IMG/VR virus record: IMGVR_UViG_3300023108_000002
From: a virus
Taxonomy: Duplodnaviria; Caudoviricetes
DNA length: 64,000 nt
Direction: 5' to 3' (one strand)
Part shown: positions 31,201 to 63,685 of the stretch, in pieces
How the letters are laid out: each line of letters starts with the position of its first letter
Numbering within the stretch: the first letter of the stretch is position 1
The notes under the pieces: model-generated
What the model saw: the letters and a program-made list of their open reading frames with translations, nothing else
Database searches by the model: none
Told to the model about the DNA's origin: nothing
Position numbers and translations under genes: made by a program

Positions 31201-34200
31201 TGGAGTCACAGTTCCATCAGTATTTAACATTACAACATCATTTACAGATGCAGAAGATGTAGATGTATATTCTACGATATTGGTGTTTGGAATATCGGCA
31301 GCGGTGATATATCCGGCACCATTAGCCAACTGATTATTATCTGTTGGTTGTGCTACCCATTCATAATCTGTACCATTCCAGCTTAAAACTTCATTTGATG
31401 TCGCTGTACTTTGGTTTAGATGTAAATCTACACTTGCATCGCTATAACTACCTGCCGCCGTGATTTGTTGACCGACATATGCTTTTGTCGCATATGTACC
31501 CAAATCTGCACTTGTAAGTTCGTCAGTAAAATCTAATGCAAGAGATGTTGCATTGATAGCAACACCAAGTTTGGCATTTTTAGAGTCTGGTGCCGTCGCC
31601 AAAGTTCCATTGTCTATTACATAATATGTTGACCCAGTAGTAAGTCCAGAAAGTCCTGTATGAATTCCAAACTCCAAAGTTACATCAATAGTTGTTCCGG
31701 CAGTTGCTGCAATACCATGAACTTTAGATGCATCTAGGTTGGACTCTCCATAAGGAAACTGAAGATGTTTTACTCTATATTCATGTCTATAGTTTCCACT
31801 ATCATATCTCCTATTTTTCCAAGAAATTGAAAACTGTCCCGATTGATGTGGATTATCAAATTGTAACGGAACTGAAGAATGACTCCATCCACTTGTTTGA
31901 ACGGCCCCGGCAGTGTTTGTAATACTTGTCCCATTCACATCCCATATTTCATAAAAAGACTCTAAGGTATAGTTGCTTTTGTCATCGTATGAAACCATGA
32001 ATGTACTAGATTTTTTGGCAAATTTAAGGTCGTATGGAGTACCGTTATAGCTATTTGCGGTAGTGTCCCATGTAACTGTACTTCCCACAGAAGTGAGAGT
32101 GTGATTACTATCAATGGAGAATTGTCGTAGATATGAGTTAGAATTTGGATAAAACGAGAGATTGACTCGATATGCCGCAACAGCATTTCCACTGATTGGA
32201 TCAATTCCTACTGCTGTAGCAATTGAATTTAGATTGAAACTACCACCAAAAGTTGCGGTTTGAGTATCCCAGTCAACAATACCTGCGACGATCGATGTAG
32301 TTCCATCTTTTGCAATAAACTTACCTTCAGTATTGTGGTCAAAAGAAAATCCTGATTTTCCAGTAACATCAACGGGATCGCCATATGTTAGTGTGGTTCC
32401 GTCCCATTCGATTCTAACGAGTTTTTTGTTTCCGCTAGCATCACTATATTCCATGATAAATTTGTCTGTTGTGCCTGGAGTACTTCCAGCATAATCGTAT
32501 TGGAATCTTTGAGAGCCAGAAGAATAACCTTCGGTGTTGTAATCTGGATGTGTAATGTAAGTTCCATCCCAAGTAACAGCAGTTCCACTAACTGTACCCT
32601 GCAATGACATAACTTGGTGTCCAGTTGCAGATGTGGACTTGCCTATAACTAAAATTCTATCTGGATCGACAGAACTAAAAAGAATATATGGTTCTTCTCC
32701 TTGAGTGGTACTTAATCCTCTAGTACCGTTAGCTGCATTATAATCGCTAAAGAGGTATTCAGTACCATACGAAAAGGTTCCACTGTTGTTTATTTGAATA
32801 CAACCATTCCATCCATTACTTTCTACCCACATTGTGAAATATTTGTCTGGTGTTGAAGAACCCCCAACAATTGCAGATTCTCCAGATGCATTATTTTCAG
32901 TGCCTGCCGAGGTAATGTAATTTTCACCCTTATTCGCTATAAATGGATAATTTGTAGGTTCAACTACAGTCACAGTTCCATCAGTATTCAACATTACAAC
33001 ATCATTTACAGCAGCTGTATTTGTTGAAGTATATTCTACAACATTTCCACCAGAGACATTGTTTGCAACATAGTTTTGTACATATGTTTCTGTTGCAAGA
33101 CCTGTTAAGTCTGCGTTTGCAACGGTTTCAATCCATCCTGTAGTTTTATAGATATAGAGTTTTTGTGTATCTTCAACAAATGCAATGTCACCAACTGTGT
33201 TTCCGACGGCTGGAAGATACGTTGCATCACTATAGATGTTGACAGATGCAACCAAAGATGTTCCATCTGGTGCAATCAGAGTTGCAGTACCAGCAACTTC
33301 TTTAATCTTATTCTCAAAACTTGGAGTATTTTCTACATATGTTGCCAAGTCTTGTGGTACAAACTTGTTTGTCGATGAATCATACACTAGACACATTTGT
33401 GATGTAAGTGTTGGTAGAGGACGAAGTTCAATTGTCTGTACATGTCCTTCTTGGTTGTGCTGGCCATATATTAAATAGTTGCCATTCGCGTTTGTTTCAA
33501 CTGCCAAATCCTTAACGCGAATAATACCACGCATATTTGAATGATTTCCACACTGATAGTATAGAATATCTGGTGCGTTTGACGGCACAACAAATGTGAT
33601 TGTTCCAGTTTCATTTCTAGAACCAGTAACACCAGAAGTCCATTCACCAAAATATGTTCCTGCTGAAAAATTGGTGCCGTTGTCGGTTGTAAAGTAGAAT
33701 GGATGGCCAGCTGCATTGATATTGACAGTATATGTACCACCACGATAAAACGGCCCAATCTCTGGATTGTTTCCACTAGCAGTACCACTAAACACATAAG
33801 CTCCTGTGGTAGAAGTGACATCATAAGAAACAGACGGAGCAACGAGTGTAGGTAGTGTGATAGAAGAAGGAACACTCACAGCAAGTCTTTGAACATCTTG
33901 TGCAGTCCCGCCGTTGATGTCTGGGTGACTATCATTTACAATTGATGTAGTTACCCAAGGAACAAGGTTATCATCTCCAGCGCCCTCAATCCATTTCAAT
34001 TTGAAATCGTGCCTTTGCGTCATTGATCCATGAACAGTATGTGCAAAGTTATTGATTTGATATGTTCCCTCCAAATAAAGTGGAACAACGGTTTGTGGTG
34101 AATTTGTAATTGCAAGTCTGGCAAAAGGCAAAGCGGATTGTGTCCAAGTCCACTGCCATGCCGTTCCGTGGCCTGCTGTTGGATCATCTACTTGAATTTC

Positions 34201-34698
34201 GAGTGTTTCTGGTGTTACAGAAAGATCAAAGTTCAGAATATCATCTGAACTAAATGTTGTTTCTCCAAGATACAATGTGTTTGAACTCAGATATAAATCT
34301 CTAAATTTGTTCGTTGCAGAACCCAAATCAAGAGTTTCGTTAGTTGCAGGGATGATTGCAGAACCCAATGATTGCAGATTTGCATCTGACATATATTTGT
34401 TGGAAATTCCTTCTAGGATATCATCAGAGGTTACGGAAGGTGAAAGAGCAGATTGAGAAGTATTTCTAACTTGTTTTAGGGCCTGTGACAGTTTAATGAC
34501 TTCATCCGTAGTTGCACCAGAAGATAGAGTTTGTGCTCTCGAATCAATTGCAGCTTCAATGTCAGTATCTTCAGTCAAACCAACTGATTTTGCCGCCCTT
34601 GCAAGTGCCAAAAGTTCATCTACAGTTGCTGTAGGAATATCATTTAATAATCTTGTACGAATTCCACTAATCGATGTTGAAAGATTGGTATCTGCCAT
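25225..34698 (-). CDS. Giant multi-domain fibre/receptor-binding protein (3157 aa)
   Basis: MADTNLSTSI N-terminus, two cupredoxin-like H...CxxHxxM domains, three VEYTST...HGIAA..GTTIDVT cassettes, two NLVDSAPATLDTLNELAAALGDD motifs, a TAWD propeller. Confidence 0.85.
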   Translation of the reverse strand: MADTNLSTSISGIRTRLLNDIPTATVDELLALARAAKSVGLTEDTDIEAAIDSRAQTLSSGATTDEVIKLSQALKQVRNTSQSALSPSVTSDDILEGISNKYMSDANLQSLGSAIIPATNETLDLGSATNKFRDLYLSSNTLYLGETTFSSDDILNFDLSVTPETLEIQVDDPTAGHGTAWQWTWTQSALPFARLAITNSPQTVVPLYLEGTYQINNFAHTVHGSMTQRHDFKLKWIEGAGDDNLVPWVTTSIVNDSHPDINGGTAQDVQRLAVSVPSSITLPTLVAPSVSYDVTSTTGAYVFSGTASGNNPEIGPFYRGGTYTVNINAAGHPFYFTTDNGTNFSAGTYFGEWTSGVTGSRNETGTITFVVPSNAPDILYYQCGNHSNMRGIIRVKDLAVETNANGNYLIYGQHNQEGHVQTIELRPLPTLTSQMCLVYDSSTNKFVPQDLATYVENTPSFENKIKEVAGTATLIAPDGTSLVASVNIYSDATYLPAVGNTVGDIAFVEDTQKLYIYKTTGWIETVANADLTGLATETYVQNYVANNVSGGNVVEYTSTNTAAVNDVVMLNTDGTVTVVEPTNYPFIANKGENYITSAGTENNASGESAIVGGSSTPDKYFTMWVESNGWNGCIQINNSGTFSYGTEYLFSDYNAANGTRGLSTTQGEEPYILFSSVDPDRILVIGKSTSATGHQVMSLQGTVSGTAVTWDGTYITHPDYNTEGYSSGSQRFQYDYAGSTPGTTDKFIMEYSDASGNKKLVRIEWDGTTLTYGDPVDVTGKSGFSFDHNTEGKFIAKDGTTSIVAGIVDWDTQTATFGGSFNLNSIATAVGIDPISGNAVAAYRVNLSFYPNSNSYLRQFSIDSNHTLTSVGSTVTWDTTANSYNGTPYDLKFAKKSSTFMVSYDDKSNYTLESFYEIWDVNGTSITNTAGAVQTSGWSHSSVPLQFDNPHQSGQFSISWKNRRYDSGNYRHEYRVKHLQFPYGESNLDASKVHGIAATAGTTIDVTLEFGIHTGLSGLTTGSTYYVIDNGTLATAPDSKNAKLGVAINATSLALDFTDELTSADLGTYATKAYVGQQITAAGSYSDASVDLHLNQSTATSNEVLSWNGTDYEWVAQPTDNNQLANGAGYITAADIPNTNIVEYTSTSSASVNDVVMLNTDGTVTPVEVATSPEQLTNQGYNGSYQQLLPNNEGYTISNTNGLVAAHVGYWLFPTQTDNKYISVAFDEAPGSIFEMKIVSAEYNSSTETWTYGTEYQDLASLGNSLGLATSDNPYVIGSPDNPDKFLILGPKKNGGSSDLIIHAVGTMGGVGITWSDTGTNSSNSGPTYNSRLDHINWYYDHAGSTAGSYKIIGAYRDNSSNCRIFRVTWDGNATIQYSDDFAIPHPIDSRSLDFSKLTEGRFAGVDASGNLRIGDIDWGTGNITVGTAYGLTSFNTNFGTDAPAHVAWRDSSEHFVVAWSVGGGSNSLKLRAFSTTGNSAVAEGSEYSLGYNQGGTYGHLSGNMAFYKNSNMFALTNAGYYYLNNTSNSKDGSFITHFSVNSSLNIVIGTSRVTHGNNSYAKNTGFGYPGKIQMDPFRSAKGSISAPGNTNATSLVVKLFAQPTQGVYTESNLDASKIHGIAASAGTTIDVTVEGGIHTGLSGLTAGSKYYVLSDGSLSATPDTNNAKVGLAMSSTTLAVDLLDELTDASLATYATKAYVDTSVANLVDSAPATLDTLNELAAALGDDANFSTTITNSLANKLEASDLNGYATETYVNNQITAAGSYSDASVDLHLNQSTATTDQMLVWDGSDYAWSTPAEKINIEGGFADMDATNDQGQSQNINLLSSEGSLHINETDTFDINGNLMYAAGTAIRFQAEMFGSGIYYTLATPWDTSSTWTHVGSSYIRPSTSGNYYGSASTDAKPTTYRISYDGIKAFVLDRQDTQNNSSGAIYTYSSSGFNNIIRPPNDGVSGNAWYQPFNTYTTNEFPLWDFRFSQDGTKIYLTFQSNTGNSDPNEIQRFDLTTAWDLSTASASAVQTLATPTTGHSGARFAISPDGKTGAFIKNGVDIVYYTTFSTAFDLTTASSWSQWPASIHGGNGPADIFFKPDGTKLYIMSDKGSYGGRIFQYDIPVSDFAAVATSGNYNDLSNTPSLATVATSGSYNDLTNTPTIPTNNNQLTNGAGYITASDVPNPSVVEYTSTNTAAVNDVVMLNTDGTVTVVEPTNYPFVRVSANNAQMTSGFGGASSYVGTIAHHSTREKAMLLFPGGTGHSDNNMLVPFIKSGSTISAGTAFASGNHLSIRDPHAFFGPAGTYEDTFIYLAASSNGNSILKVGTITGTTVNGLSNLSGGNGSVSIGHSGNRCLFYHGGFSGDVLTLYAKFPNSNNKAALRKFTYDFATETFDTSYPEIETSSSEVFEWEHTAVDPATPTRIAVYRQEGSGATRKGIIKFATVDWDIGTIVLGPQTDLFTRSGTHSVGASEIQNHQEFHPTNGLLATVTTTPADGGGDAPYRLKMALYSADANLNVTNVSGNITIQGGANVQVGKVRGNICWTKGSNTGSSPNAPTLIIPWWNTNDTYPVTRYYHFDNSGNLVSSNDSQINGPDDFPQNINKWIYSSPFNDGDTAAYTLASNYPEVVMTQGAYGESNFDATKLHGVAASAGTTIDVTLEYGIHTGLSGLTTGTKYFVTDGGGISTSGVAKLGTAINATSLALDFADELTSADLGTYATKAYVASQIPSLTGYATETYVDTSVANLVDSAPATLDTLNELAAALGDDPNFATTITNQIASKANAYSTVTVTASGGYFYIDGIQQATLSFEPGRTYRFDQSDASNGSHPLRFSTTSDGTHASGVEYTVGVTTNGTAGSAGAYTEIAITHATPDLYYYCTNHSGMGAGSVVGNFSGSYSDLTGTPTPYSDSMVDTHLNQSSASTGQVLSWNGSDYSWADVAGGATTSDTAPTSPSAGEFWFKSDSADLYLYYTDADSSQWIQVGGAAASTTTGSSSSSSTTPFTKFYLSASQPGSTVSSSSYLGQNVGTWYEATFANAANTAGLSPDSSDRDPTLTGITFSGDKFSGFVQNGTYEISVQPEVYERNSTAGQRYHGWEASTGAFSSAGWLSPGTGSFNINGVTVPDSIIVTFEDATPANNWIRYILESDQSGDYWIGQAILTIKKIG

Positions 34699-46752: not shown

Positions 46753-47724
46753 ATGTTTAGATTTTTTAAAGAGCGAAAGTGGTTATTATGGAGTTGGATT
46801 GGTTCCGCAATAATCTTATCATCACTTTGGGTACAAGTACAAATTGATGTAAAAATTAATGAATGGTTTGGACAGTTTTACGACATGATCCAAAGGGCAT
46901 TAGCAGAACCTAATGCCATTACAATAGGAGAATATTGGGCCAGTCTAGCGTCCTTTATTACACTCGCAGCAATATATGTTGCAATTGCAGTCGCAATATC
47001 GTTTTTCACAGCACATTATCTGTTTAGATGGCGAACCGCAATGGTAGAATGGTATCATTCTGTCTATGATAAGGCTAGAACTATCGAAGGTGCTGCTCAA
47101 CGTGTGCAAGAAGATACTATCAAGTTTAGTAGAATTATGGAAGGCCTTGGTACTAGTTTTATTGAGTCCATTATGGTATTGATACAATTTGTGCCTATTT
47201 TACTTGGATTGAGTGTGGGAATTCCCATCTTTTTCTTTGGTGATTGGCAATACGGACTTGTAACAGGTGCATTAGTCTGGTCGATTGGGGGCACATTATT
47301 CCTCGTTGGGTTGGGATGGTTGCTGAGACTTGTAGGTGTTGAATATGACTTGCAAAAGAAAGAGGCTGCATATCGTAAAATTCTGGTGATTGCAGAGGAC
47401 GATGAGACAGTCAGGCCTAAAACTATTGAAGAATTGTTTGAAGGTGTCAGAGGCATTCATTTTAAATCCTATATAAGATACCTATACTTCAATATAGGTA
47501 GAATTGCATACTTACAGGCAAATGTCTTGAGTGCTTATGTGTTTCTTGCCCCCGCTATTGTTGCTGGTGCAGTCACATTGGGTGTAATGCAACAAATTAT
47601 TCGGGCGTTTGGTAGAGTAGAAGGTTCTATGCAGTATTTACTAAAAGCATGGCCTACCATTATTGAATTAATGAGTGTCTACAAACGACTAAGAGAATTT
47701 GAAAGACAGATACAGGAGAAATAA
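46753..47724 (+). CDS. sbmA: SbmA/BacA-family peptide transporter (short form)
   Basis: HYLFRWRTAM, IEGAAQRVQEDT, EAAYRK, YFNIGRIAYLQ, ELMSVYKRLREFE all match SbmA. Confidence 0.92.
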   Translation: MFRFFKERKWLLWSWIGSAIILSSLWVQVQIDVKINEWFGQFYDMIQRALAEPNAITIGEYWASLASFITLAAIYVAIAVAISFFTAHYLFRWRTAMVEWYHSVYDKARTIEGAAQRVQEDTIKFSRIMEGLGTSFIESIMVLIQFVPILLGLSVGIPIFFFGDWQYGLVTGALVWSIGGTLFLVGLGWLLRLVGVEYDLQKKEAAYRKILVIAEDDETVRPKTIEELFEGVRGIHFKSYIRYLYFNIGRIAYLQANVLSAYVFLAPAIVAGAVTLGVMQQIIRAFGRVEGSMQYLLKAWPTIIELMSVYKRLREFERQIQEK

Positions 47725-51833: not shown

Positions 51834-52132
51834 TAAGATATCTTGGCAGAGTTACAATAGCATTTTCTATTTTTCTAAACAGTCTCTTTGGCGGTAGAAA
51901 TAATCAAACTCTATCAGCACAACAATATGAGAGACAAAGACAGGGAAAATGGAATTTATGTTGGATCATTGATAAATTATTTGCGTTTGAAGGCGACGGC
52001 CATTGTCTAGAAGCATGGATAAAATGGCAAATCATACACAGAGCAATGGATGATTATAAAAACATTGCAGAAAAGTACTATAGAAGAGAAGTCGGATATG
52101 AAAAACAAGAATCATTTAAGCGGATGTTGTGA
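51830..52132 (+). CDS. Hypothetical protein
   Basis: ATGA coupling; NSLFGGRNNQTLSA...GHCLEAW. Confidence 0.7.
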   Translation: MIRYLGRVTIAFSIFLNSLFGGRNNQTLSAQQYERQRQGKWNLCWIIDKLFAFEGDGHCLEAWIKWQIIHRAMDDYKNIAEKYYRREVGYEKQESFKRML

Positions 52133-52271
52133 TGATGTTGATATAATACAAACGGAAGGGGCAGTTTATACTCCCAATGGATGGAGAGTCAGATATATCT
52201 TGACAATTTGCGATAATTGTGGTAGTATAAAGGCAAGATCTAATTTTTATGATGCAGAGGAGCGAATATGA
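52098..52271 (+). CDS. Small Cys-rich (zinc-ribbon-like) protein
   Basis: GCCD...ICDNCGS. Start moved to MKNKN. Confidence 0.55.
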   Translation: MKNKNHLSGCCDDVDIIQTEGAVYTPNGWRVRYILTICDNCGSIKARSNFYDAEERI

Positions 52272-52627
52272 GTATGCATTTAGTTGGGCCATATATGACC
52301 ACAACAAATACCAAGAAAAGAAAATCTAAAAAGAAGTCAAAATCACTTCTACAAGCAGAAGCTGATCACGAAAAGTTCTTAAAACGCATGGGCGTGGGTA
52401 AAAGTAAGACAGAATATCGTGCTGACCTGCCGAGCTACAAGTGTATAAACACAAACATTGTTCCAACTTCTGATGTCATTTGTAGTAATGGATCAAGGAA
52501 AGAGAGAAACATATATAGTGGTGAACGTCAATTGATAGGAGTTGCCACAATGCACAAGTCAAATATGGTGCCTATTTTTGCAGACAAGAAAGAAGATGCT
52601 AAAGAAATTGCAAAAATGAGGCGATAA
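52268..52627 (+). CDS. Conserved T4-like phage hypothetical protein
   Basis: C-terminal IGVATMHKSNMVPIF motif that I recognise from T4-like phages. Confidence 0.75.
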   Translation: MSMHLVGPYMTTTNTKKRKSKKKSKSLLQAEADHEKFLKRMGVGKSKTEYRADLPSYKCINTNIVPTSDVICSNGSRKERNIYSGERQLIGVATMHKSNMVPIFADKKEDAKEIAKMRR

Positions 52628-52824
52628 TGAAAGACCCACTAGAGTTTCGTAAAAAATATCAGGGTATTATAGAAAACTTGACGAATAATGCAGATCAATG
52701 TGCATATCAGTGGGCTCTCAGTGGTGAAAATGAATGGTTGGCAGGATATTATATGTACGTGAAAAAGATTGAAGTCCTAAAGACATGGATAAAAGAACGC
52801 GAGAAAGAAGAAAATGACAAATGA
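52627..52824 (+). CDS. Hypothetical protein
   Basis: TAATG coupling. Confidence 0.7.
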   Translation: MKDPLEFRKKYQGIIENLTNNADQCAYQWALSGENEWLAGYYMYVKKIEVLKTWIKEREKEENDK

Positions 52825-53065
52825 GACAAAGCTCATACTCATCACAGATTTTATCGAACAAAAATTGAGAAAAGAAAAAGAATTAGAATATTATTTGAAA
52901 GAATTGGAAGAACTTCAGCGTAAAATTGGATATTTGCGCCAAGAAGTAAATCTTACCAACACAATTATCAACATGATAAAGACAGATACGATATATGATA
53001 TCAAAGAAAAGATGCTCACTGAAGAAAAGGTGATACAATTACCAGAGGAAGATATAGATGCCTGA
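52814..53065 (+). CDS. Coiled-coil hypothetical protein
   Basis: Overlapping gene run; heptad pattern. Confidence 0.7.
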   Translation: MTNETKLILITDFIEQKLRKEKELEYYLKELEELQRKIGYLRQEVNLTNTIINMIKTDTIYDIKEKMLTEEKVIQLPEEDIDA

Positions 53066-53156
53066 TTGGATGCTCATTGGATTGCTTGTTTTGGCTGTTT
53101 GTGTCATAATTCTTATCACGGAATTGATAGAATCATGGTGGACAGGAAGAAAATAA
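53058..53156 (+). CDS. 32-aa single-TM peptide
   Basis: MPDWMLIGLLVLAVCVIILITELIESWWTGRK; overlaps the upstream stop. Confidence 0.5.
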   Translation: MPDWMLIGLLVLAVCVIILITELIESWWTGRK

Positions 53157-53157
53157 A

Positions 53158-53283
53158 ATGACAGATGATGAAATTCGTGAAATGATAGAAATGTTTCCAA
53201 ATCTACCTAACCCCACTCACTATCCACAGACATTTCTCTACTATGTGAACCTGTATCGTTTTCTAAAATCTTTCGGGAACTAA
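53158..53283 (+). CDS. 41-aa hypothetical protein
   Basis: MTDDEIREMIEMFPNLPNPTHYPQTFLYYV...; abuts the upstream ORF. Confidence 0.6.
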   Translation: MTDDEIREMIEMFPNLPNPTHYPQTFLYYVNLYRFLKSFGN

Positions 53284-53538
53284 TTTTGCAACAAATTGCT
53301 CATAGCCACCGACATATTCCCACTCTCCATTTACTTCTGCCCAGATTTGAGGCACAGTCTTAGGACGAGCTCCTGTTGAAAACTCTTTTTCATAATCATT
53401 GACAAGCATTGCTTTCACTCTGGTGGATTGAATATCATATTCATCAATCTCAATACCACGATCTTTACAGAGTGCTGCCGTTGCTTTACAGTATCCACAA
53501 TTCTCTTTTGTGTACATTCTAATTCGTGCTACATTCAT
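53263..53538 (-). CDS. Glutaredoxin (NrdH/NrdC-like)
   Basis: MYTKENCGYC, TVPQIW, YVGGYEQF. Start chosen by the GGAG RBS. Confidence 0.88.
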   Translation of the reverse strand: MNVARIRMYTKENCGYCKATAALCKDRGIEIDEYDIQSTRVKAMLVNDYEKEFSTGARPKTVPQIWAEVNGEWEYVGGYEQFVAKLVPERF

Positions 53539-53757
53539 CTTACAAATCTCCATCATAATATATAGGGTATGTCACAAGAGAAAAAAATAAGCATTGTCGA
53601 TAAAGTTCTGCTAGTCATCATTGTTGTTGTATGGCTAGATCAAGAATTTTTCAAATTCACAGAACCCTCTCATAAGAAATTTCTTTCATTCTTTGAGCCA
53701 ACAACTTCTGTTGTTCACGCTTTTCTTCGATTAGGTGAAAAACCGCTAAAATAGTTC

Positions 53758-53786
53758 TTGACACGAAAGAACGAATCATCTATACT
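53758..53786 (+). promoter_or_regulatory. Sigma70-type early promoter
   Basis: TTGACA-17nt-TATACT, with CGAATCA in the spacer. Confidence 0.85.
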
Positions 53787-53815
53787 GATAATGTAGAAAG
53801 AAAAAGGAAATTCTT

Positions 53816-54022
53816 ATGAACCTACCTCTTGAAATTGGCCAGTCATTCATTCGTCGCTATTCAGACTATGTTGCAACAGGAGAGATCACTTCGATTTCCA
53901 CTGATGCCGATGACGAAACTCTGATCACTGTGATGTTTGACGATGGTGCGGTAAAAGTCTACACCGAAAACTGCATAGAGCAAAACTTGGGCCGCCGCAT
54001 GATAGTTTTAGATGATGCATAA
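53816..54022 (+). CDS. Hypothetical protein (SH3-like beta pattern)
   Basis: AAGGA RBS after the promoter. Confidence 0.75.
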   Translation: MNLPLEIGQSFIRRYSDYVATGEITSISTDADDETLITVMFDDGAVKVYTENCIEQNLGRRMIVLDDA

Positions 54023-54197
54023 TTTCTCGCTTCTAGATTGTATGATGATACTCATATTTTCTCACTTGCTTTATTTTAGTGTTCTACTTCTATTTCTCAC
54101 AGGAAGTCCAGGCGCAACAATTCTCGGCTGGTTCTTTTGGGAGATATGGAAAGGTTATGAAAAATGGAGATTGACAAATGACAACTATTTTACATAA
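54012..54197 (+). CDS. Small membrane protein
   Basis: Hydrophobic ORF overlapping both neighbours. Confidence 0.55.
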   Translation: MMHNFSLLDCMMILIFSHLLYFSVLLLFLTGSPGATILGWFFWEIWKGYEKWRLTNDNYFT

Positions 54198-54438
54198 GTC
54201 TGGCCCACAACCTTGGGAAGCCAACAAACAAACTTCATCTTCCAACAAGCCTCCATACGCAATCATGATCGAGTTCGATAATGACGAATGGATGTATGTC
54301 TGTGAAGGATCACAATGGCAAGAATCAAAGGACAATCCAGTACTCTATGATACATATGAAGAAGCTCTAGAAGCATCTAAAGTCTGGAATAATCCTCGCA
54401 TAGTTTCTTATCATATTTCCGCTGCTGACCGCGGCTAG
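54178..54438 (+). CDS. Hypothetical protein
   Basis: GGAG RBS; YAIMIEFD..EWMYV. Confidence 0.7.
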   Translation: MTTILHKSGPQPWEANKQTSSSNKPPYAIMIEFDNDEWMYVCEGSQWQESKDNPVLYDTYEEALEASKVWNNPRIVSYHISAADRG

Positions 54439-54544
54439 ACCGGAGCCCATTTTCTCTCTTTCTAAGGAGTTTCAAATGATACGAGAAAGGGTTTCACAAT
54501 GAGGAAGAATTTTGCCTTTTTTGGAGTAAATTATATATAACTGT

Positions 54545-54745
54545 ATGACAGGATTTATGAAGAAAAGAAAAGGTAAATATATTGCATATGACGCCAATGG
54601 AAAGGTGCTCATAATCTCACGATCTTTGACTGTATGTAAGGAAGTCTTAGCGAGTATAATGAATAATGAAAGAGAACATTTGAATGAATCAGAAAAAGAA
54701 AAATATTATGCAAGGATACGACAAGAAGAAACATCCGATACTTGA
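54545..54745 (+). CDS. Hypothetical protein
   Basis: 66-aa ORF, KYIAYDANGKVLIISR. Confidence 0.55.
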   Translation: MTGFMKKRKGKYIAYDANGKVLIISRSLTVCKEVLASIMNNEREHLNESEKEKYYARIRQEETSDT

Positions 54746-55007
54746 GCTTGAACAGAACATCTTAGACTGTTGGAAAGTCTGTGATGATATTGACTTGGTC
54801 TGGAAGGAAATGTATGATGGAAATCCAGAACCAACTGAAGATCAGATTGCCAATGCTATGATAGGATTGAATCAGATCTATGAGTGGAAATTTCAGAGAC
54901 TTTGGAATAATTTCGAAGAAGTCTTGAAGAAGAATTCCGAGCCGCCGGATACCCATGAGAATGATGGCGAGAATTGGGAAAAATGGAGATTGAATGATGG
55001 AGATTGA
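54708..55007 (+). CDS. Hypothetical protein
   Basis: LELEQNILDCWKVCDDI...IANAMIGL..IYEWKF pattern. Confidence 0.7.
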   Translation: MQGYDKKKHPILELEQNILDCWKVCDDIDLVWKEMYDGNPEPTEDQIANAMIGLNQIYEWKFQRLWNNFEEVLKKNSEPPDTHENDGENWEKWRLNDGD

Positions 55008-55198
55008 TGGGAAAAGATGGGGAAAATTGGGATTCTTAGGGATATGATTTTCAGGAATCCGCTGCAGATTCTAGCTTTTGGGGGTTTAGCGAATATTTGA
55101 GACTGTTGAGTAAATCCCCCAGCCTTTTTTCTGAGCCGCCTGAGAGATGCCGCTGAGAATTTCTGCCAAAATATTTTAAAAAAAATGCCGAATTGCCC

Positions 55199-55227
55199 TT
55201 GACATTTCATTGCGAATCACTTATATT
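55199..55227 (+). promoter_or_regulatory. Sigma70-type early promoter driving a non-coding transcript
   Basis: GCCCTTGACA-17nt-TATATT, with CGAATCA in the spacer. Confidence 0.85.
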
Positions 55228-55234
55228 AATATAT

Positions 55235-55456
55235 GTAAGAAGAAAAGATTTTAGACTCTTTTCCTCATATGTCCGTGCGGAGGGCAGGCCACCTGAAAGC
55301 ACGATCTCTGGTGAATATATTCGCCCGTGAAATATCGGTGACGTGAAACCCAGAGATGTTAGTTTCAATCAAACTAGAGCGGCAACGTCAATAAGTCCGT
55401 GCGGAGAGATTGGAGATACTAGCTGGGCGTATGAGGAAAAAAGTTTTTCTTCTTTT
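55235..55456 (+). ncRNA. Candidate ~220-nt structured non-coding RNA of unknown family
   Basis: Closing helices 55237-55246/55445-55454 and 55256-55274/55425-55443, internal hairpins, own promoter and terminator, no credible ORF. Confidence 0.75.
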
Positions 55457-55484
55457 CCCTGTCTCCTTTCTATATGGGTAACTT

Positions 55485-55517
55485 AGAGCAGTCCTTCTTT
55501 GGCTGCTCTTTTTTTTT
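55485..55517 (+). terminator. Rho-independent terminator
   Basis: AGAGCAGTC/GGCTGCTCT stem followed by a run of T. Confidence 0.85.
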
Positions 55518-55538
55518 GAAAAAAGTTTTAAAAAGCTC

Positions 55539-55567
55539 TTGACAGTGGCCGATTATAATGTTACTAT
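55539..55567 (+). promoter_or_regulatory. Sigma70-type early promoter
   Basis: TTGACA-17nt-TACTAT. Confidence 0.7.
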
Positions 55568-55600
55568 GGCTATGCTAGCCAATAATGATTAGGAGATTAA

Positions 55601-55873
55601 ATGAGTATCGAATCATTAGCAGAAATTGCTGAATTAAATGCCTTACATGGAGTCTCTCCAGAAGAAGCTAGATTGAAATTCTTTGAGAATTTAAATGCTT
55701 CAATCATCAGAGATTACTTTGAAAAAGATATGGCATGTCCCTGTGATGAATGCCCATTAAGAGACTCTTGTGCAGAGAGTTATGCAGAGTGTTCAGCATT
55801 TAGAAACTGGGCAGTAAAAGGACAATACGATGAGGCCACAATTGGAAAACATTTGAGAGTTCCTAAAGACTGA
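55601..55873 (+). CDS. Cys-cluster protein, possible Fe-S or Zn binding
   Basis: AGGAG RBS; CPCDECPLRDSCAESYAEC. Confidence 0.75.
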   Translation: MSIESLAEIAELNALHGVSPEEARLKFFENLNASIIRDYFEKDMACPCDECPLRDSCAESYAECSAFRNWAVKGQYDEATIGKHLRVPKD

Positions 55874-55894
55874 CCTTAGAAGAAAGTTTCTATC

Positions 55895-55926
55895 AAAAAA
55901 CCCTCTAGAGATTCTAGAGGGTTTTT
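55895..55926. terminator. Bidirectional-type intrinsic terminator
   Basis: A6-CCCTCTAG-loop-CTAGAGGG-T5. Confidence 0.85.
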
Positions 55927-56310
55927 GCGTATCTGGGGGTGACTTCAAGCTAAAAGCTTATGAGCAATTATTTATAATTCTGTGAATCTCATCTGCTAGA
56001 AATGAATAGAAAAGTTACAAAGAGTGCCCATATGAGCATCTTTTAGAGAGTTTCTGAGAGTTTCTGAAGTAGGGTCCCGGCAAAGCTTTCGTACAGCTTT
56101 AGCTCAGTTTAGCTTTCGTGACTTGAATTAGATACCCCCCTAAACCTCAGCGTGTATCTTTAAATTTGTGGGTTCCCATCTGGAATGAGGCGGAAGTGTA
56201 TAGCACCAGCCCCCCAGAATCTTTCAGTGTTTCTAAAAGTTTTTCCGAAAAAAATTTTTTTTGCTGGCTAAAAACCCAAAACCCTTTTTGGTAAGATCCT
56301 ACATATTCAC

Positions 56311-56652
56311 ATGGAAGTCAAAGAGGCATATCGTTTGTTCTGGCTCGTCAAGGGTCATTTGAATTCTCCACACGAAACCATCATGGCATCTGCGAATGGA
56401 TATTTCAAAAGAGTCTGGTATGATTTCGCGGGAGAGGATATGTCTATATGGGAAGTGGGGTTTGAAGAAGAATGGGAGAGAGTTATGTCTTTTCAAGCAC
56501 AAAAAGAAATCATCTATCATTTGACTTGTAAGGTCTGTAAGGGATATTTTACTTATGCTACTATGAATGAGCATTATGATATAGAAAGAGGCCACATGTA
56601 TTGTCCTACATGCGGCCATAGTGGTTCTGCTAAGTTAGAAGAAAGTGTTTAG
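56311..56652 (+). CDS. Two-part hypothetical protein with a C-terminal zinc ribbon
   Basis: CKVC...CPTC in the C-terminal half. Confidence 0.65.
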   Translation: MEVKEAYRLFWLVKGHLNSPHETIMASANGYFKRVWYDFAGEDMSIWEVGFEEEWERVMSFQAQKEIIYHLTCKVCKGYFTYATMNEHYDIERGHMYCPTCGHSGSAKLEESV

Positions 56653-56734
56653 TAGAGATACATAGAGATCAGTCCTATGATAAGGACGATTGAGAAAATT
56701 TCAGAAGAGACTTCTATCAAGAGGTCTTTTAGCA

Positions 56735-56905
56735 TCACTGTGTTCCTTCTAGTTGTTGTAGACACATTTCAAAATCGGCAATCATTCCTTCCGCGGCTTC
56801 TACAGCACGGGAATCTCCCATTGCGCGATACTCTAAGATATTTTGACGACAAGCATCAATGTATCCAAGGATTGAGTTACGAAAATTTTCAACTTCAGTA
56901 GACAT
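56735..56905 (-). CDS. Small early protein (56 aa)
   Basis: Missed by the ORF track. AAAGGTGATTCG RBS; MSTEVENFRNSILGYIDACRQNILEYRAMGDSRAVEAAEGMIADFEMCLQQLEGTQ. Confidence 0.8.
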   Translation of the reverse strand: MSTEVENFRNSILGYIDACRQNILEYRAMGDSRAVEAAEGMIADFEMCLQQLEGTQ

Positions 56906-56934
56906 TTCGAATCACCTTTCTTTGTCACTCTACT

Positions 56935-56963
56935 ATGTTATGATATTTGTAGAGAGCTGTCAA
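56935..56963 (-). promoter_or_regulatory. Sigma70-type early promoter
   Basis: TTGACA-17nt-TAACAT on minus. Confidence 0.7.
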
Positions 56964-56971
56964 GAGCAAAA

Positions 56972-57169
56972 TTAGCAAAAGACAACTCTCAAAACTTCAC
57001 CTCTTTCGCCGAAGAGTGTGTGAACAACTCTGTGAAGATGCCTTTGTGCGAGTCTGCATTCGAACCATGCTTCCGCTTCTGCCAAAGTCTCAACAACAAG
57101 AGCAGGCATTGCCAAAGTTCCCATCACAGGACACAAAGTGGTGATCGTAGTTCTTACTTCATATGTCAT
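56972..57169 (-). CDS. Small early protein
   Basis: GAGGTGATTCG RBS, own promoter. Confidence 0.8.
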   Translation of the reverse strand: MTYEVRTTITTLCPVMGTLAMPALVVETLAEAEAWFECRLAQRHLHRVVHTLFGERGEVLRVVFC

Positions 57170-57198
57170 TTCGAATCACCTCTCTCTTATTATGTCTA

Positions 57199-57227
57199 AC
57201 TATACCACACAAAAAGGAATCTGTCAA
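57199..57227 (-). promoter_or_regulatory. Sigma70-type early promoter
   Basis: TTGACA-17nt-TATAGT on minus, with GATTC right after the -35. Confidence 0.85.
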
Positions 57228-57230
57228 CCC

Positions 57231-57458
57231 CTAAAATGACTCATAATACCAAGATGGTATCGGTTTATGGGTTATTTCAGTAACTCCCCAACTCTCAAAC
57301 CTTCCATTTTTGATTGCCTCTATGGCATTTTTCTTTGTTTTGAAAGGACAATTAGGCATCATGATTGGTTCGATGTTTTCATCCACAACAACCCAACCAT
57401 ACCAACCTTTTTTGGGAGTCGGCCATGTCCAAGTGTTTTTTACAACTCTTACTTTCAT
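57231..57458 (-). CDS. Trp-rich hypothetical protein
   Basis: Follows the sigma-4 gene; P...CPFKTKKNA motif. Confidence 0.7.
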   Translation of the reverse strand: MKVRVVKNTWTWPTPKKGWYGWVVVDENIEPIMMPNCPFKTKKNAIEAIKNGRFESWGVTEITHKPIPSWYYESF

Positions 57459-57470
57459 AATGTATCAGAC

Positions 57471-57716
57471 TTACGCAGCAATGTCAACTAAAATCGAGCG
57501 AAGATCCGCAGAACGCGAAGGATGTTTCAGTTTCCGTTCGGCTTTGGCTTGGATTTGACGAATGCGCTCAACAGACAAGTTCATAATGCATCCGATTTCG
57601 CCGAGAGTGTGCTGCCCGACACCGTTCAGTCCGTAGCGCATTCGAATGACACGCTCTTCTCTGGGGGAGAGAGTAAGAAGAGTTGTACGAAGAATGTCTG
57701 AGTCGTTCTTAATCAT
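57471..57716 (-). CDS. Stand-alone sigma70 (RpoD) region 4 domain protein
   Basis: LLTLSPREERVIRMRYGL...HTLGEIG...SVERIRQIQAKAERKLKHPSRSADLRSIL aligns by eye with the RpoD C-terminus. Confidence 0.92.
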   Translation of the reverse strand: MIKNDSDILRTTLLTLSPREERVIRMRYGLNGVGQHTLGEIGCIMNLSVERIRQIQAKAERKLKHPSRSADLRSILVDIAA

Positions 57717-57746
57717 TTCGAATCACCTTTCTCTTATTACTCTTAT

Positions 57747-57774
57747 AATCTAACAGATTCATAGAGAAAGTCAA
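57747..57774 (-). promoter_or_regulatory. Sigma70-type early promoter cassette
   Basis: GCCCTTGACT-16nt-TAGATT on minus, with GAATC in the spacer. Confidence 0.65.
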
Positions 57775-58039
57775 GGGCTTTTTTTAGCCTGCTTGAATGT
57801 AGATGTATTCGGAATTTTCTAGAGTAGGAAAGTTGGAAACATTTTGCAGATCGACTTTGCGAACAAAGTGGCCGTGGTGAATGACATACCACCACCTTTG
57901 TTGATCTGGAATGCTGTCTCCTTGAAGATATATCTTTCCCATACTGAAACATATTTATTTTTAGCGGTCAAAAGCAGCGGGTCAAATCCAAGGAATTCTA
58001 ACATAAATTATATTGTGAGGTATTAGAAGGAAATACTCT

Positions 58040-58525
58040 ATGGAAAATCAGAATCAAAATAAGAAACTTTGGAAAAAGGTAAAGAAAATGGATTTAGGAA
58101 ACCCTGCCGTCACGGCACTAGTAGGTCTGGTAATATTCTATATCGGATTAAAAACATTCTCTGGGGGCATGAAGGCCATGGGAAACATGGAGCATCTTTC
58201 GTTTTTCTTGGGAAATCCACTGTATATGTTCTTTGGTGGAATCATCATGACTTTGTTGTGGCAATCGTCAAGCTTGAGTACAACCGCCATCATTGCGTTG
58301 GTTGCGTCTGGTGCCTTGCCGCTTCCGGCAGCGATTGGAGCAGTTCTAGGAGCGAACATCGGAACAACAGGAACCATCTGGCTTGCGGGAATTTTTGTTT
58401 CTGATGGCATGCCGAAGGGAGACACACTACGAATTGCGATGGCACATACAGGAGCGAACCTTCTAATGGCTATCATGTTGTTGCCGTTTGTTGGCCAGAT
58501 TGCTAAATATTTGAGCAAATTTTAG
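58040..58525 (+). CDS. Na/Pi cotransporter family protein, single repeat (half-size)
   Basis: LWQSSSLSTT...LGANIGTTGT signature, about five hydrophobic segments. Confidence 0.85.
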   Translation: MENQNQNKKLWKKVKKMDLGNPAVTALVGLVIFYIGLKTFSGGMKAMGNMEHLSFFLGNPLYMFFGGIIMTLLWQSSSLSTTAIIALVASGALPLPAAIGAVLGANIGTTGTIWLAGIFVSDGMPKGDTLRIAMAHTGANLLMAIMLLPFVGQIAKYLSKF

Positions 58526-58600
58526 CCACAGGCCCTTGACTTCTTTGCTCAAATGACTTATATTAGTAGTGTAAGTAATGAAAGGTGATTCGTAATGACA
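58516..58600 (+). repeat. Early promoter/RBS cassette, copy 1
   Basis: 27-nt and 42-nt blocks shared with 58742-58826. A 44-nt block (58532-58575) is identical to 61315-61358. Confidence 0.9.
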
Positions 58601-58726
58601 AGAGAGGAATTTTTTGAGTGGTTGGAGACTTGCCCCACGCATAAACACAACATTACATTTGATGAGTTTGATTTTGTGACTGTGTGCTTTCCAATTGAAG
58701 AAGAGGAAGAAGAGAGCGCGGCATAA
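58595..58726 (+). CDS. 43-aa acidic early protein
   Basis: AAAGGTGAT RBS; MTREEFFEWLETCPTHKH...EEEEEESAA. Confidence 0.75.
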   Translation: MTREEFFEWLETCPTHKHNITFDEFDFVTVCFPIEEEEEESAA

Positions 58727-58741
58727 ACCGAACACATCCCC

Positions 58742-58826
58742 CAAATTTTAGCCACAGGCCCTTGACTTTTGAGTTCGAATCGCATATATTAGTAGTATAA
58801 GTAATGAAAGGTGATTCGTAATGACA
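58742..58826 (+). repeat. Early promoter/RBS cassette, copy 2
   Basis: TTGACT-17nt-TATATT plus AGGTGATTCGTAATG; near-identical to copy 1 except in the spacer. Confidence 0.9.
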
Positions 58827-59162
58827 CAGACTGCTAAAGAATTCATAGATGAAATGAACTACTTCGATACATATGGAAGTGGTTGTGGATTTGAGACACG
58901 TTGGTCTATCTATGGTGAAAATATCAAAATGGGAGAGAACCATCCCTTTCAAACTCCCATGACGATTCAGAACAAATGTGATGTTTGGGGATATGATTCC
59001 TCTGCTGTTTGTAATGGTAAAACGTGGGGAGATCTCTGGCAGACATGTGAAACTGTCATACGCAATTCAGTGGATAGTGATGGTAATAGAGATCATCACA
59101 TCTTTATTGAAGATTTAGAAGCGCAAGGTAATGGCGTTTGGAACTTGGTAACAGGGAGCTAA
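58821..59162 (+). CDS. Hypothetical early protein
   Basis: Cassette RBS; TWGDLW...DHHIFIE. Confidence 0.8.
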   Translation: MTQTAKEFIDEMNYFDTYGSGCGFETRWSIYGENIKMGENHPFQTPMTIQNKCDVWGYDSSAVCNGKTWGDLWQTCETVIRNSVDSDGNRDHHIFIEDLEAQGNGVWNLVTGS

Positions 59163-62741: not shown

Positions 62742-62818
62742 CCGCTCGTAGATCAACTGGATAGATCAACTGACTTCTAATCAGTAGGTTGAGGGTTCGA
62801 GTCCTTCCGAGCGGGCCA
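62742..62818 (+). tRNA. tRNA-Arg(UCU)
   Basis: CCGCTCG/CGAGCGG acceptor, GATC D-stem, ACTGA-CTTCTAA-TCAGT anticodon arm, GGTTCGAGTCC, encoded CCA. Confidence 0.95.
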
Positions 62819-62831
62819 GATAAATAGGGGA

Positions 62832-62937
62832 GACTACTAGGAAGAGGTAGAAACCAGTAAGGCAGAAATGGTTCTGATTTTATTGAAGCGACCTGAATCC
62901 CCTCAAACCGCGCACCAGAAAGGAACACCTAGTAGTC
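62832..62937 (+). ncRNA. Candidate structured RNA or 5' leader
   Basis: Perfect 10-bp closing stem GACTACTAGG/CCTAGTAGTC with internal hairpins, preceded by GATAAATA at 62819-62826. Confidence 0.5.
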
Positions 62938-62960
62938 GTTAATTTAGAAAGGATAATGAA

Positions 62961-63260
62961 ATGGGTGTAACACCATCGACAGGAATGCCATTTGATGTTT
63001 ATCAAGTGATGCAGGCGACAATGTATGGAACTCCACAAGCTCCACATTATCCTAATAGTGAAAATGTTAGACCCCCAGCGGGTAAAGATTCAAAACGTGT
63101 AGTAGAACCATCTACAAGGACTGATGTAAATATAGATGTTTTACGAAGATGGGTTGAACAAAAAGATAGAATTGATGATAGTTTAGAAGATCTAAGACTT
63201 AGGACTTATTTCAATAAAGAACAAATTGAACAAGGAGCAATCTTAGATATAGAAGTTTAA
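62961..63260 (+). CDS. Hypothetical Pro-rich protein
   Basis: AAAGGA RBS; 99 aa between tRNAs. Confidence 0.75.
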   Translation: MGVTPSTGMPFDVYQVMQATMYGTPQAPHYPNSENVRPPAGKDSKRVVEPSTRTDVNIDVLRRWVEQKDRIDDSLEDLRLRTYFNKEQIEQGAILDIEV

Positions 63261-63334
63261 GCGGGTATAGCATAGTGGTAATGTTACAGCCTTCCAAGCT
63301 GAAGATAGGAGTTCGATTCTCCTTACCCGCTCCA
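63261..63334 (+). tRNA. tRNA-Gly(UCC)
   Basis: GCGGGTA/TACCCGC acceptor, CAGC-CTTCCAA-GCTG anticodon arm, GTTCGATT, CCA. Confidence 0.95.
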
Positions 63335-63363
63335 AATAAAAATCCATGGCGACGGCCTATGGA

Positions 63364-63513
63364 TTGTGGTGACTGAATAAGTGGTAAGCGTGCCACTAAG
63401 GTATACACAAAGAGGGTAGCACCCTGTCTTAGCGGATGCAGTGTAGTTTGAAAGCGAGTTAGCCCGAGCGCTCAGTGCGAGTAGATGTAGGTAATCGGTA
63501 ATCCTACCCACAA
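63364..63513 (+). ncRNA. manA-motif-like structured RNA
   Basis: TTGTGG/CCACAA closing stem. The 5' GGTGACTGAATAA, internal TAAGGT and 3' GGTAATCCTACC segments resemble the marine/cyanophage manA motif as I remember it. Confidence 0.6.
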
Positions 63514-63521
63514 CTTATAAA

Positions 63522-63598
<77 letters not shown>

Positions 63599-63610
63599 AA
63601 CAGAAATTAT

Positions 63611-63685
63611 TCCGGCGTAGCTCAGCGGTAGAGCAGTTGACTGTTAATCAATTGGTCGTAGGTTCGATCCCTACCGCCGGAGCCA
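63611..63685 (+). tRNA. tRNA-Asn(GUU)
   Basis: TCCGGCG/CGCCGGA acceptor, GTTGA-CTGTTAA-TCAAT anticodon arm, GGTTCGATCCC, CCA. Confidence 0.95.

Follow-up and report, generated by a model that had tools for sequence, protein, structure and literature searches.

A small structured RNA gene of marine phages with a long closing helix and a palindromic loop

The locus and its RNA

The window, by which we mean the whole 64,000-nt stretch of viral DNA analyzed here, carries on its plus strand a conserved core of 194 nt, at 55253-55446, that lies between a promoter and an intrinsic terminator. The features that delimit the gene are as follows:

55199-55227, plus strand: sigma-70-type promoter, TTGACA-17-TATATT (consensus scan, score 11/12)
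near 55234, plus strand: predicted transcription start, from the position of the promoter
55485-55517, plus strand: intrinsic terminator, a 9-bp stem at 55485-55509 followed by a T-run to 55517 (consensus scan)

A sequence-only reading of this DNA had proposed a structured RNA gene of ~220 nt with a promoter and terminator of its own. Our analyses bear out such a gene and revise its size, to a conserved core of 194 nt within a predicted primary transcript of ~283 nt. The folding energy of the plus strand over 55234-55520 is −95.6 kcal/mol versus −74.6 ± 5.3 kcal/mol in dinucleotide shuffles (z = −3.95), and the covariance model scored the window with 158.8 bits on the plus strand versus 24.2 bits on the minus strand. 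These strand-specific scores, together with the many G-U pairs, indicate that selection acts at the RNA level on the plus strand. Thus, 55253-55446 is a genuine structured RNA gene of the plus strand.

The same reading had seen no credible ORF here, and indeed an ORF search of 55199-55517 returned none of 60 aa or more between promoter and terminator. Among family members, the length classes differ by non-multiples of 3, and in 16 members no ORF that starts with ATG reaches 12 aa. The 12-aa ORF seen most often occurs only where an optional arm of the fold (P3, below) supplies the ATG, and its substitutions are non-synonymous. The RNA of this locus is non-coding.

Near-identical contigs share the window's arrangement of promoter, RNA and terminator. 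Past the terminator sits a second promoter (55539-55567), which serves a 90-aa ORF (55601-55873) with a Cys-rich stretch. A 184-nt contig spanning 55283-55466 was found in one salt-marsh metatranscriptome library; it is an assembled contig whose ends, strand and level are not readable and for which DNA carry-over is possible. In two RNA libraries the fraction of the RNA's sampled words that is present was 0.76-0.81 (assembled contigs, presence only); parts of the sequence that metatranscriptome contigs do not cover carry no evidential weight, and libraries with small shares of these words were left out.

Several other features of the window are worth recording. Seven kilobases downstream of the RNA, and on the same strand, lies a tRNA cluster (62742-63685, plus strand) with Arg-TCT, Gly-TCC, Pro-TGG and Asn-GTT. 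The interval 52000-59000 contains 39 sigma-70-like promoters versus 19.8 expected, along with small ORFs, and resembles the early regions of T4-type phages. The gene at 46753-47724 (plus strand), an auxiliary gene of a kind unusual in phages, encodes a full-length SbmA/BacA-like transporter of the inner membrane (PF05992, E = 1e-139). On the minus strand, a 3157-aa ORF (25225-34698) stands among genes for laminin-G, glycine-rich, Ig-like and beta-propeller domains, and it is probably a giant fiber or host-recognition protein.

Family, fold and palindromic loop

The RNA belongs to a family with at least 155 copies among contigs of IMG/VR and of marine metagenomes; 151 of the copies are full-length, and the set contains 109 distinct sequences. 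Core lengths range from 138 to 223 nt among the members collected (five flank bases per row subtracted). An exact 20-mer from the 5′ part matched one IMG/VR contig, whose 194-nt core is ~97% identical to that of the window and lies between two unrelated ORFs, with flanks wholly different from the window's. A 22-mer from the 3′ part matched 32 IMG/VR loci, and a gapped pattern matched at least 120 metagenome contigs of marine, estuarine and salt-marsh origin. Copies among the collected loci were recovered with a profile made from a first alignment (A1), and a second alignment (A2) consists of 70 sequences that are at most 95% identical. The pattern CCGTGCGG..CCGTGCGG was too loose, returning at least 120 IMG/VR stretches with 1 true family member among the matches listed. 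A scan of one genome per prokaryote species, bacteria and archaea, gave a sole match, in a Dongia MAG, which the profile did not confirm and which we take to be a chance match.

The carriers, where identifiable, are uncultured T4-like marine myoviruses; the window's own phage is unclassified. In one carrier, of 152 kb, the major capsid protein is of T4 type, and its closest cultured counterparts, with 62-66% identity, are those of C48C1, Methylophilales phage Melnitz and Pelagibacter phage HTVC008M. The record of a 275-kb carrier gave no match to gp23. Neighborhoods reached through a flanking protein contain gp32, PhoH, a late-transcription coactivator, a SegE-type endonuclease, DNA ligase and glutaredoxin. 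None of four carrier records contains psbA, and so the carriers are not obviously cyanophages. Among the cultured phages of INPHARED, blastn found no match for the RNA, for the 12 kb around it or for its divergent paralogs (below), and the covariance model had no match in C48C1, Melnitz or HTVC008M, the three cultured phages ranked closest by major capsid protein.

We propose a fold of eight helices, in which a closing helix, P1, opens onto a three- or four-way junction that bears two conserved arms and an optional arm. The elements, all on the plus strand, are:

55253-55274, plus strand: P1, 5′ strand, of a 22-bp closing helix whose A-C-U base is invariant
55275-55302, plus strand: arm A, made up of P2, an internal loop RGA / RAAA, P2a and a 7-nt loop
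55275-78 with 55299-302, plus strand: P2, 97.9% paired, with GC/AU/UA switches
55282-84 with 55292-94, plus strand: P2a
55285-55291, plus strand: loop L2a, CAGGCCA, with the palindrome GGCC at 55287-55290
55304-55357, plus strand: P3, optional variable arm; helix 55304-11 with 55350-57, whose basal pairs covary
55358-55423, plus strand: arm B, a long irregular hairpin of P4, P5, P6, P6′ and an apical loop
55358-63 with 55418-23, plus strand: P4 (long-range), 99.7% paired
55366-70 with 55408-12, plus strand: P5, CAAUC/GAUUG, 98.9% paired
55374-75 with 55403-04, plus strand: P6, 100% paired, CG/AU/UA
55379-82 with 55397-400, plus strand: P6′, GCGG/CCGU
55383-55396, plus strand: apical loop of arm B, 14 nt
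55425-55446, plus strand: P1, 3′ strand, ending in A-G-U and carrying AAGGAG in relatives in which an ORF is directly next

In A2, standard pairs occupy 97.6% of 3401 cells over the whole model, and 0 of 500 shuffles attained any of the five measures applied to it. When, as a control, partners were slid by 1-3 columns, pairing fell to 37-47%. The homologs likewise revealed compensatory changes, with both sides altered in 25 of the 51 pairs. P1 is the best-supported helix. Both-side changes are seen in 13 of its 21 pairs counted, with up to five pair types per position, and its first three pairs, A-U, C-G and U-A (ACU/AGU), are constant in 109/109 distinct members. P1 contains the pairing of 55256-55274 with 55425-55443 that had been noticed from the window; that pairing is confirmed, and the full helix runs to 22 bp (55253-55274 with 55425-55446). 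An outer pairing proposed in addition (55237-55246 with 55445-55454) holds for this phage and near-identical copies but not for other members, the flanks of which are unrelated. Two further complementarities that had been pointed out, GTGC/GCAC and ATCTCTGG/CCAGAGAT, correspond to helices P2 and P3. P3 itself measures ~54 nt in the window, shrinks to a 5-bp hairpin in many members, is missing from the shortest and gives way to unrelated inserts in a few; the suggested GGTGAA/TTCGCC hairpin lies in this optional arm, and relatives retain it only in part.

The sequence of arm B is nearly invariant among the collected members, a near-invariance that is partly inflated because the search patterns demanded parts of arm B. 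Mutual information independently recovers the P6 pair (CG 101, AU 4, UA 3, UG 1) and gives a signal in arm B for 124-154. A proposed GCG-GCAA-CGT hairpin is indistinguishable from GCGG/CCGU, since the bases are invariant. The sole alternative pairing seen in the fold concerns P4. The local hairpin TAGTTT/AAACTA, which had been listed among the internal helices, pairs in 95.1% of cells with 19 A-C cells, whereas long-range P4 pairs in 99.7% and includes one compensatory case (GAGU/ACUU). We therefore prefer long-range P4, and alternative states are possible.

A 12-mer reported to occur twice does so, at 55271-55282 and 55395-55406, and both copies are conserved in the family. The internal pseudo-symmetry read into this repeat did not survive, as the copies lie in different structural contexts and not at equivalent positions; a switch operating through the two copies was rejected because a swap of partners is impossible in most members. 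A kink-turn at the internal loop between P2 and P2a was also rejected, as the loop, judged by eye, does not match the consensus. Conserved unpaired bases are all but missing from the junction.

The view that no known family fits is sustained by our searches. With Rfam 15 at gathering thresholds, the whole window yielded 4 tRNAs only. At E ≤ 10 on 55100-55620, the best matches were GcvB (21 bits, cut-off 42) and ylbH (21 bits, cut-off 50), both driven by the terminator; the FMN riboswitch (RF00050) and RNase P, junctions of which the sequence had seemed to recall, are missing even from this list. These results bear on three further readings of the element: a riboswitch that senses a ligand, a ribozyme that cleaves itself, or a small mobile element bounded by terminal inverted repeats. 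Its compact multi-helix junction fold, its many different gene neighborhoods and its ends, which are inverted repeats, could be taken that way. We consider all three highly improbable. The lack of any match to an Rfam riboswitch or ribozyme model at E ≤ 10 and the scarcity of conserved unpaired junction bases argue against a riboswitch or ribozyme, and the downstream genes (below) share no known pathway. A mobile element is disfavored by copy number, with exactly one copy in 4/4 viral records of 55-275 kb and never more than one per locus (profile A1, 155-copy set), and the G-U pairs and strand-specific scores point to selection on an RNA. Nothing in these analyses points to the ligand sensor or the 6S-like polymerase decoy that had been suggested.

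The family's most telling feature, which the sequence-only reading missed, is that the loop of arm A is always palindromic. A strict four-base palindrome stands at the same position of L2a in 107 of the 109 distinct members, and the other 2 have UCGG, which is self-complementary with wobble pairs. The words are GGCC (71), GAUC (25), CCGG (8) and GUAC (3). In some members the palindrome comprises six bases (UGAUCA, CGGCCG, CGUACG); otherwise an A follows. Treated as two "pairs" in A2, L2a is complementary in 140/140 cells, with GC 37, AU 20, CG 10 and UA 3 at the inner pair, which consists of adjacent bases, and GC 60, CG 8 and UG 2 at the outer pair. None of 500 shuffles matched the observed pairing or covariation score. 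The identical word occurs on differing stem backgrounds and differing words occur on an identical background. Parsimony counts 19 word switches, with a floor of 4, on a quick tree that was built from ~150 columns without those of the hairpin and is poorly resolved.

A switch of a loop from GGCC to GAUC has been used as comparative support for the symmetric kissing loops that cryo-EM revealed between molecules of OLE and between molecules of GOLLD (Kretsch et al., PMC12286853). L2a likewise displays covariation of adjacent loop bases that preserves the palindrome, the criterion applied in that work. As adjacent bases are unable to pair within a chain, and given the same signature in OLE and GOLLD, we infer a homodimer formed via L2a. 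The pattern thus suggests that two copies of the RNA dock through a symmetric kissing-loop contact. A 4-bp kissing contact is by itself weak. With one evident self-complementary contact only, a dimer is the simplest expectation.

Genomic settings and proposed role

The RNA occurs in three settings: standing alone, within tRNA arrays and directly before a small ORF. Promoters like that of the window lie 51-89 nt upstream of the RNA in ~20 related loci. tRNAs are present in 57 of the 155 collected loci, every one on the RNA's strand. In at least 17 loci a same-strand tRNA (Asn, Thr or Pro) begins 2-9 nt past the RNA, tRNA-Pro is immediately downstream in at least 5, and several loci have the order promoter-RNA-tRNA-tRNA. 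The genes that follow the RNA belong to at least 25 unrelated families. In several contigs (L144, L148 and L289) a conserved GC-rich hairpin of the GGGAGAGG...CCTCTCCC type lies directly 5′ of the RNA; it may be a terminator or the end of another element.

The commonest downstream neighbor is a gene for a 68-aa protein of what we call the MRTVHYVG family (MRTVHYVGM..RARRVFGGPAYYH..WDASAV; for example, L130:3083-3286, and ~50 other loci). It starts 4-17 nt past the RNA in at least 43 loci and within 300 nt in at least 8 more. The protein has no match in Pfam or PHROG, with names that are hypothetical only; its predicted model (pLDDT 82.6) has a small alpha/beta fold, for which there was no informative structural match and in which there was no sign of RNA binding. 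When the family was looked up in reverse, some of its genes had the RNA just upstream, the P0119 loci had a mere 60-nt gap, and in two contigs other RNAs and tRNA-Trp occupied the slot instead. MRTVHYVG-family genes that lack the RNA show that the link between the two is not obligatory.

The close spacing raises the possibility of a cis-acting leader or intercistronic module, in which P1 would hide the ribosome-binding site of the next gene, whose translation would then require P1 to be opened by a ribosome that completes the upstream ORF, as in translational coupling, by a ligand or protein bound to the core, or by cleavage. Our data offer this reading several points of support. Among the matches listed, a small ORF begins 4-17 nt past the end of the RNA in ~50 related loci, and there the 3′ strand of P1 is the Shine-Dalgarno sequence. 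An ORF start follows within 13 nt in 20 of 32 loci that have GGAG in the last 10 nt of P1 versus 3 of 67 without it (Fisher p = 6e-10). Where GGAG is present, the 5′ strand compensates, with GACUC instead of GACUA, so that P1 persists even at loci where its 3′ strand also serves as a ribosome-binding site. The stop codon of the upstream ORF often lies 0-7 nt ahead of P1, and the RNA and the MRTVHYVG-family gene occur as a unit behind at least 8 different upstream genes. Against a leader stand the terminator of the window's RNA together with the separate promoter of the next gene (55539-55567), the tRNAs that take the place of an ORF directly downstream in the loci noted above, the heterogeneity of the downstream genes and the MRTVHYVG-family members without the RNA, such as those of P0119. 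Moreover, a 22-bp P1 far exceeds the switching helix of a riboswitch, and the palindromic loop would have no role. On this evidence we judge the cis-acting leader unlikely, yet a serious rival. The earlier statement that the RNA cannot be a cis leader is right for this phage, given its terminator, but does not extend to the ~50 related loci that end close to a small ORF. The position of P1 over a Shine-Dalgarno sequence in about a third of loci fits a cis role, and cis and trans roles may coexist; at such loci P1 could occlude the site or couple translation of the two genes.

Related RNAs are found in the same genomic slot. Contig L281 contains, at 2042-2481, two tandem divergent paralogs (2042-2217 and 2219-2407) followed by tRNA-Trp and then an MRTVHYVG-family gene. 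The first paralog scores 77.9 bits against the covariance model and differs at the apex of arm B, and the loops of the pair are CCGG and UGAUCA. Contig L289 (also L290) encodes, at 2283-2405, an unrelated RNA of 127 nt. Its closing helix has 23 bp, starting with ACU and ending with AGU, and its hairpin loop, GCUAGCA, is palindromic; this RNA too sits before tRNA-Trp and an MRTVHYVG-family gene. Neither this 127-nt RNA nor the L281 paralogs matched Rfam, even at E ≤ 10. The L281 and L289 RNAs indicate that the combination of a long framing helix and a palindromic loop recurs beyond the main family.

These RNAs also bear on the view that the element is solely a processing or stability cassette, the long helix of which serves as a nuclease site or exonuclease block framing early-gene and tRNA transcripts, with no function in trans. 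The invariant ACU/AGU base of a two-turn helix, common to two other RNA types in the slot, would fit such a cassette, as would the frequent position of the RNA at the 5′ end of tRNA operons. A framing helix has no need, however, of ~110 further nucleotides conserved nearly to the base, nor of covarying helices P2 and P4-P6 and a loop that is always palindromic. We therefore regard a pure cassette as improbable.

The independent promoter and terminator, the adjacency to tRNAs and the diversity of downstream genes were counted in favor of an independent gene. The explanation that we favor, and hold to be somewhat probable, is that the element encodes a stable, processed, self-dimerizing, trans-acting structured RNA of T4-like marine phages. 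Under this proposal, transcription in the window would start from the RNA's own host-type promoter, and in relatives the RNA would be made within early or tRNA-operon transcripts. Cuts at or near P1 would release it from longer transcripts. The two-turn P1 duplex with its invariant ACU/AGU base would suit a double-strand-specific nuclease, and where a tRNA follows, RNase P would cut at the tRNA 5′ end. Two copies would then dock through palindromic L2a, and the nearly invariant arm B may be the surface for a conserved partner.

More tentatively, marine T4-like phages could carry a wider set of ~130-230-nt "framed" RNAs, defined by a two-turn helix, an ACU/AGU base and a palindromic loop, among which the present RNA would be the most abundant. 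Inside infected cells such RNAs might form symmetric dimers, or larger particles, made of RNA alone, and would then be small equivalents of the cages of ROOL and GOLLD. If so, the palindrome would serve as an address by which co-resident paralogs avoid pairing with one another, as the CCGG and UGAUCA loops of L281 illustrate.

Comparison with known phage and viral RNAs

Two viral RNAs that self-associate through loops provide partial parallels. In the phi29 pRNA (RF00044), the two ends form a helix that opens onto a three-way junction, and loops of different molecules pair with each other in an oligomer that was first revealed by covariation. Like it, the RNA described here is a phage RNA of similar size in which a helix of the 5′ and 3′ ends opens onto a junction. 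The pRNA, however, uses two different complementary loops and forms a ring on the portal of phi29-like podoviruses, whereas here there is a single palindromic loop in a T4-like context. To our knowledge, T4-like myoviruses package their DNA without an RNA. Identity with the pRNA was rejected on the basis of the one palindromic loop, the T4-like context and the absence of a cmscan match to RF00044. The dimerization initiation site of HIV-1 is a central, purine-flanked loop palindrome that varies among lineages yet remains self-complementary and drives kissing-loop homodimerization. That site is a six-base palindrome in a viral genomic RNA, whereas the palindrome here has four bases (six in some members) and belongs to a small non-coding RNA. 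As for 6S RNA (RF00013), there was no cmscan match, and the fold supported by covariation is a multi-way junction, not a bubble duplex.

In its setting, the RNA resembles rnaC (species 1) and rnaD (species 2) of T4, small stable RNAs that are co-transcribed and processed with the tRNA cluster (annotation, AF158101). These are likewise small non-coding RNAs of a T4-type phage in a tRNA setting. The folds differ: neither T4 RNA has a 22-bp closing helix, and rnaC ends in a tRNA-like T-arm, which the RNA here lacks. The covariance model found nothing in the T4 tRNA region. A second comparison is with manA (RF01745), an RNA motif of cyanophages that was long taken for a cis-regulatory leader and for which RNA-only decamers and 60-mers have been reported (bioRxiv 10.64898/2026.07.01.735769). 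Both are small RNAs of marine phages (manA being <200 nt), but the manA fold is unrelated to the one described here, there was no model match, and self-assembly of the present RNA is putative.

The likeness to GOLLD (RF01998) and ROOL (RF03087) is one of kind and context. Like them, the RNA is a phage-encoded, structured orphan often located at tRNA islands, with gp23, gp32, PhoH and the late-transcription coactivator in the contexts of its carriers. Like OLE and GOLLD, it has a loop palindrome that switches from GGCC to GAUC (PMC12286853), although oligomers were seen by cryo-EM in those cases and the signal here lies in sequence only. Homology to GOLLD or ROOL was rejected, there being no match by sequence or model. 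GOLLD, ROOL and OLE are RNAs of 500-800+ nt with dozens of helices that form 8- or 14-mer cages, whereas the present RNA has 138-223 nt and ~8 helices.

Unexplained stable RNAs, such as T4 rnaC and rnaD, have been a feature of phage tRNA islands for fifty years. The family described here is small enough for direct biochemistry and cryo-EM, and abundant and diverse enough for rigorous covariation analysis. With its clean and testable dimerization signature, it offers a tractable model for self-pairing phage RNAs. Its carriers' nearest cultured relatives infect SAR11 and OM43, which are among the most abundant bacteria of the ocean, and a new entry in an RNA-family database would improve the annotation of marine viromes. 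On present comparisons the RNA is best placed, in kind, with the orphan RNAs that phages encode at tRNA islands (ROOL, GOLLD and T4 rnaC/rnaD), as a member of none of these families. Self-assembly has by now been established for several of those orphans, and its recent discovery in ROOL, GOLLD, OLE and manA makes RNAs of this kind a live question.
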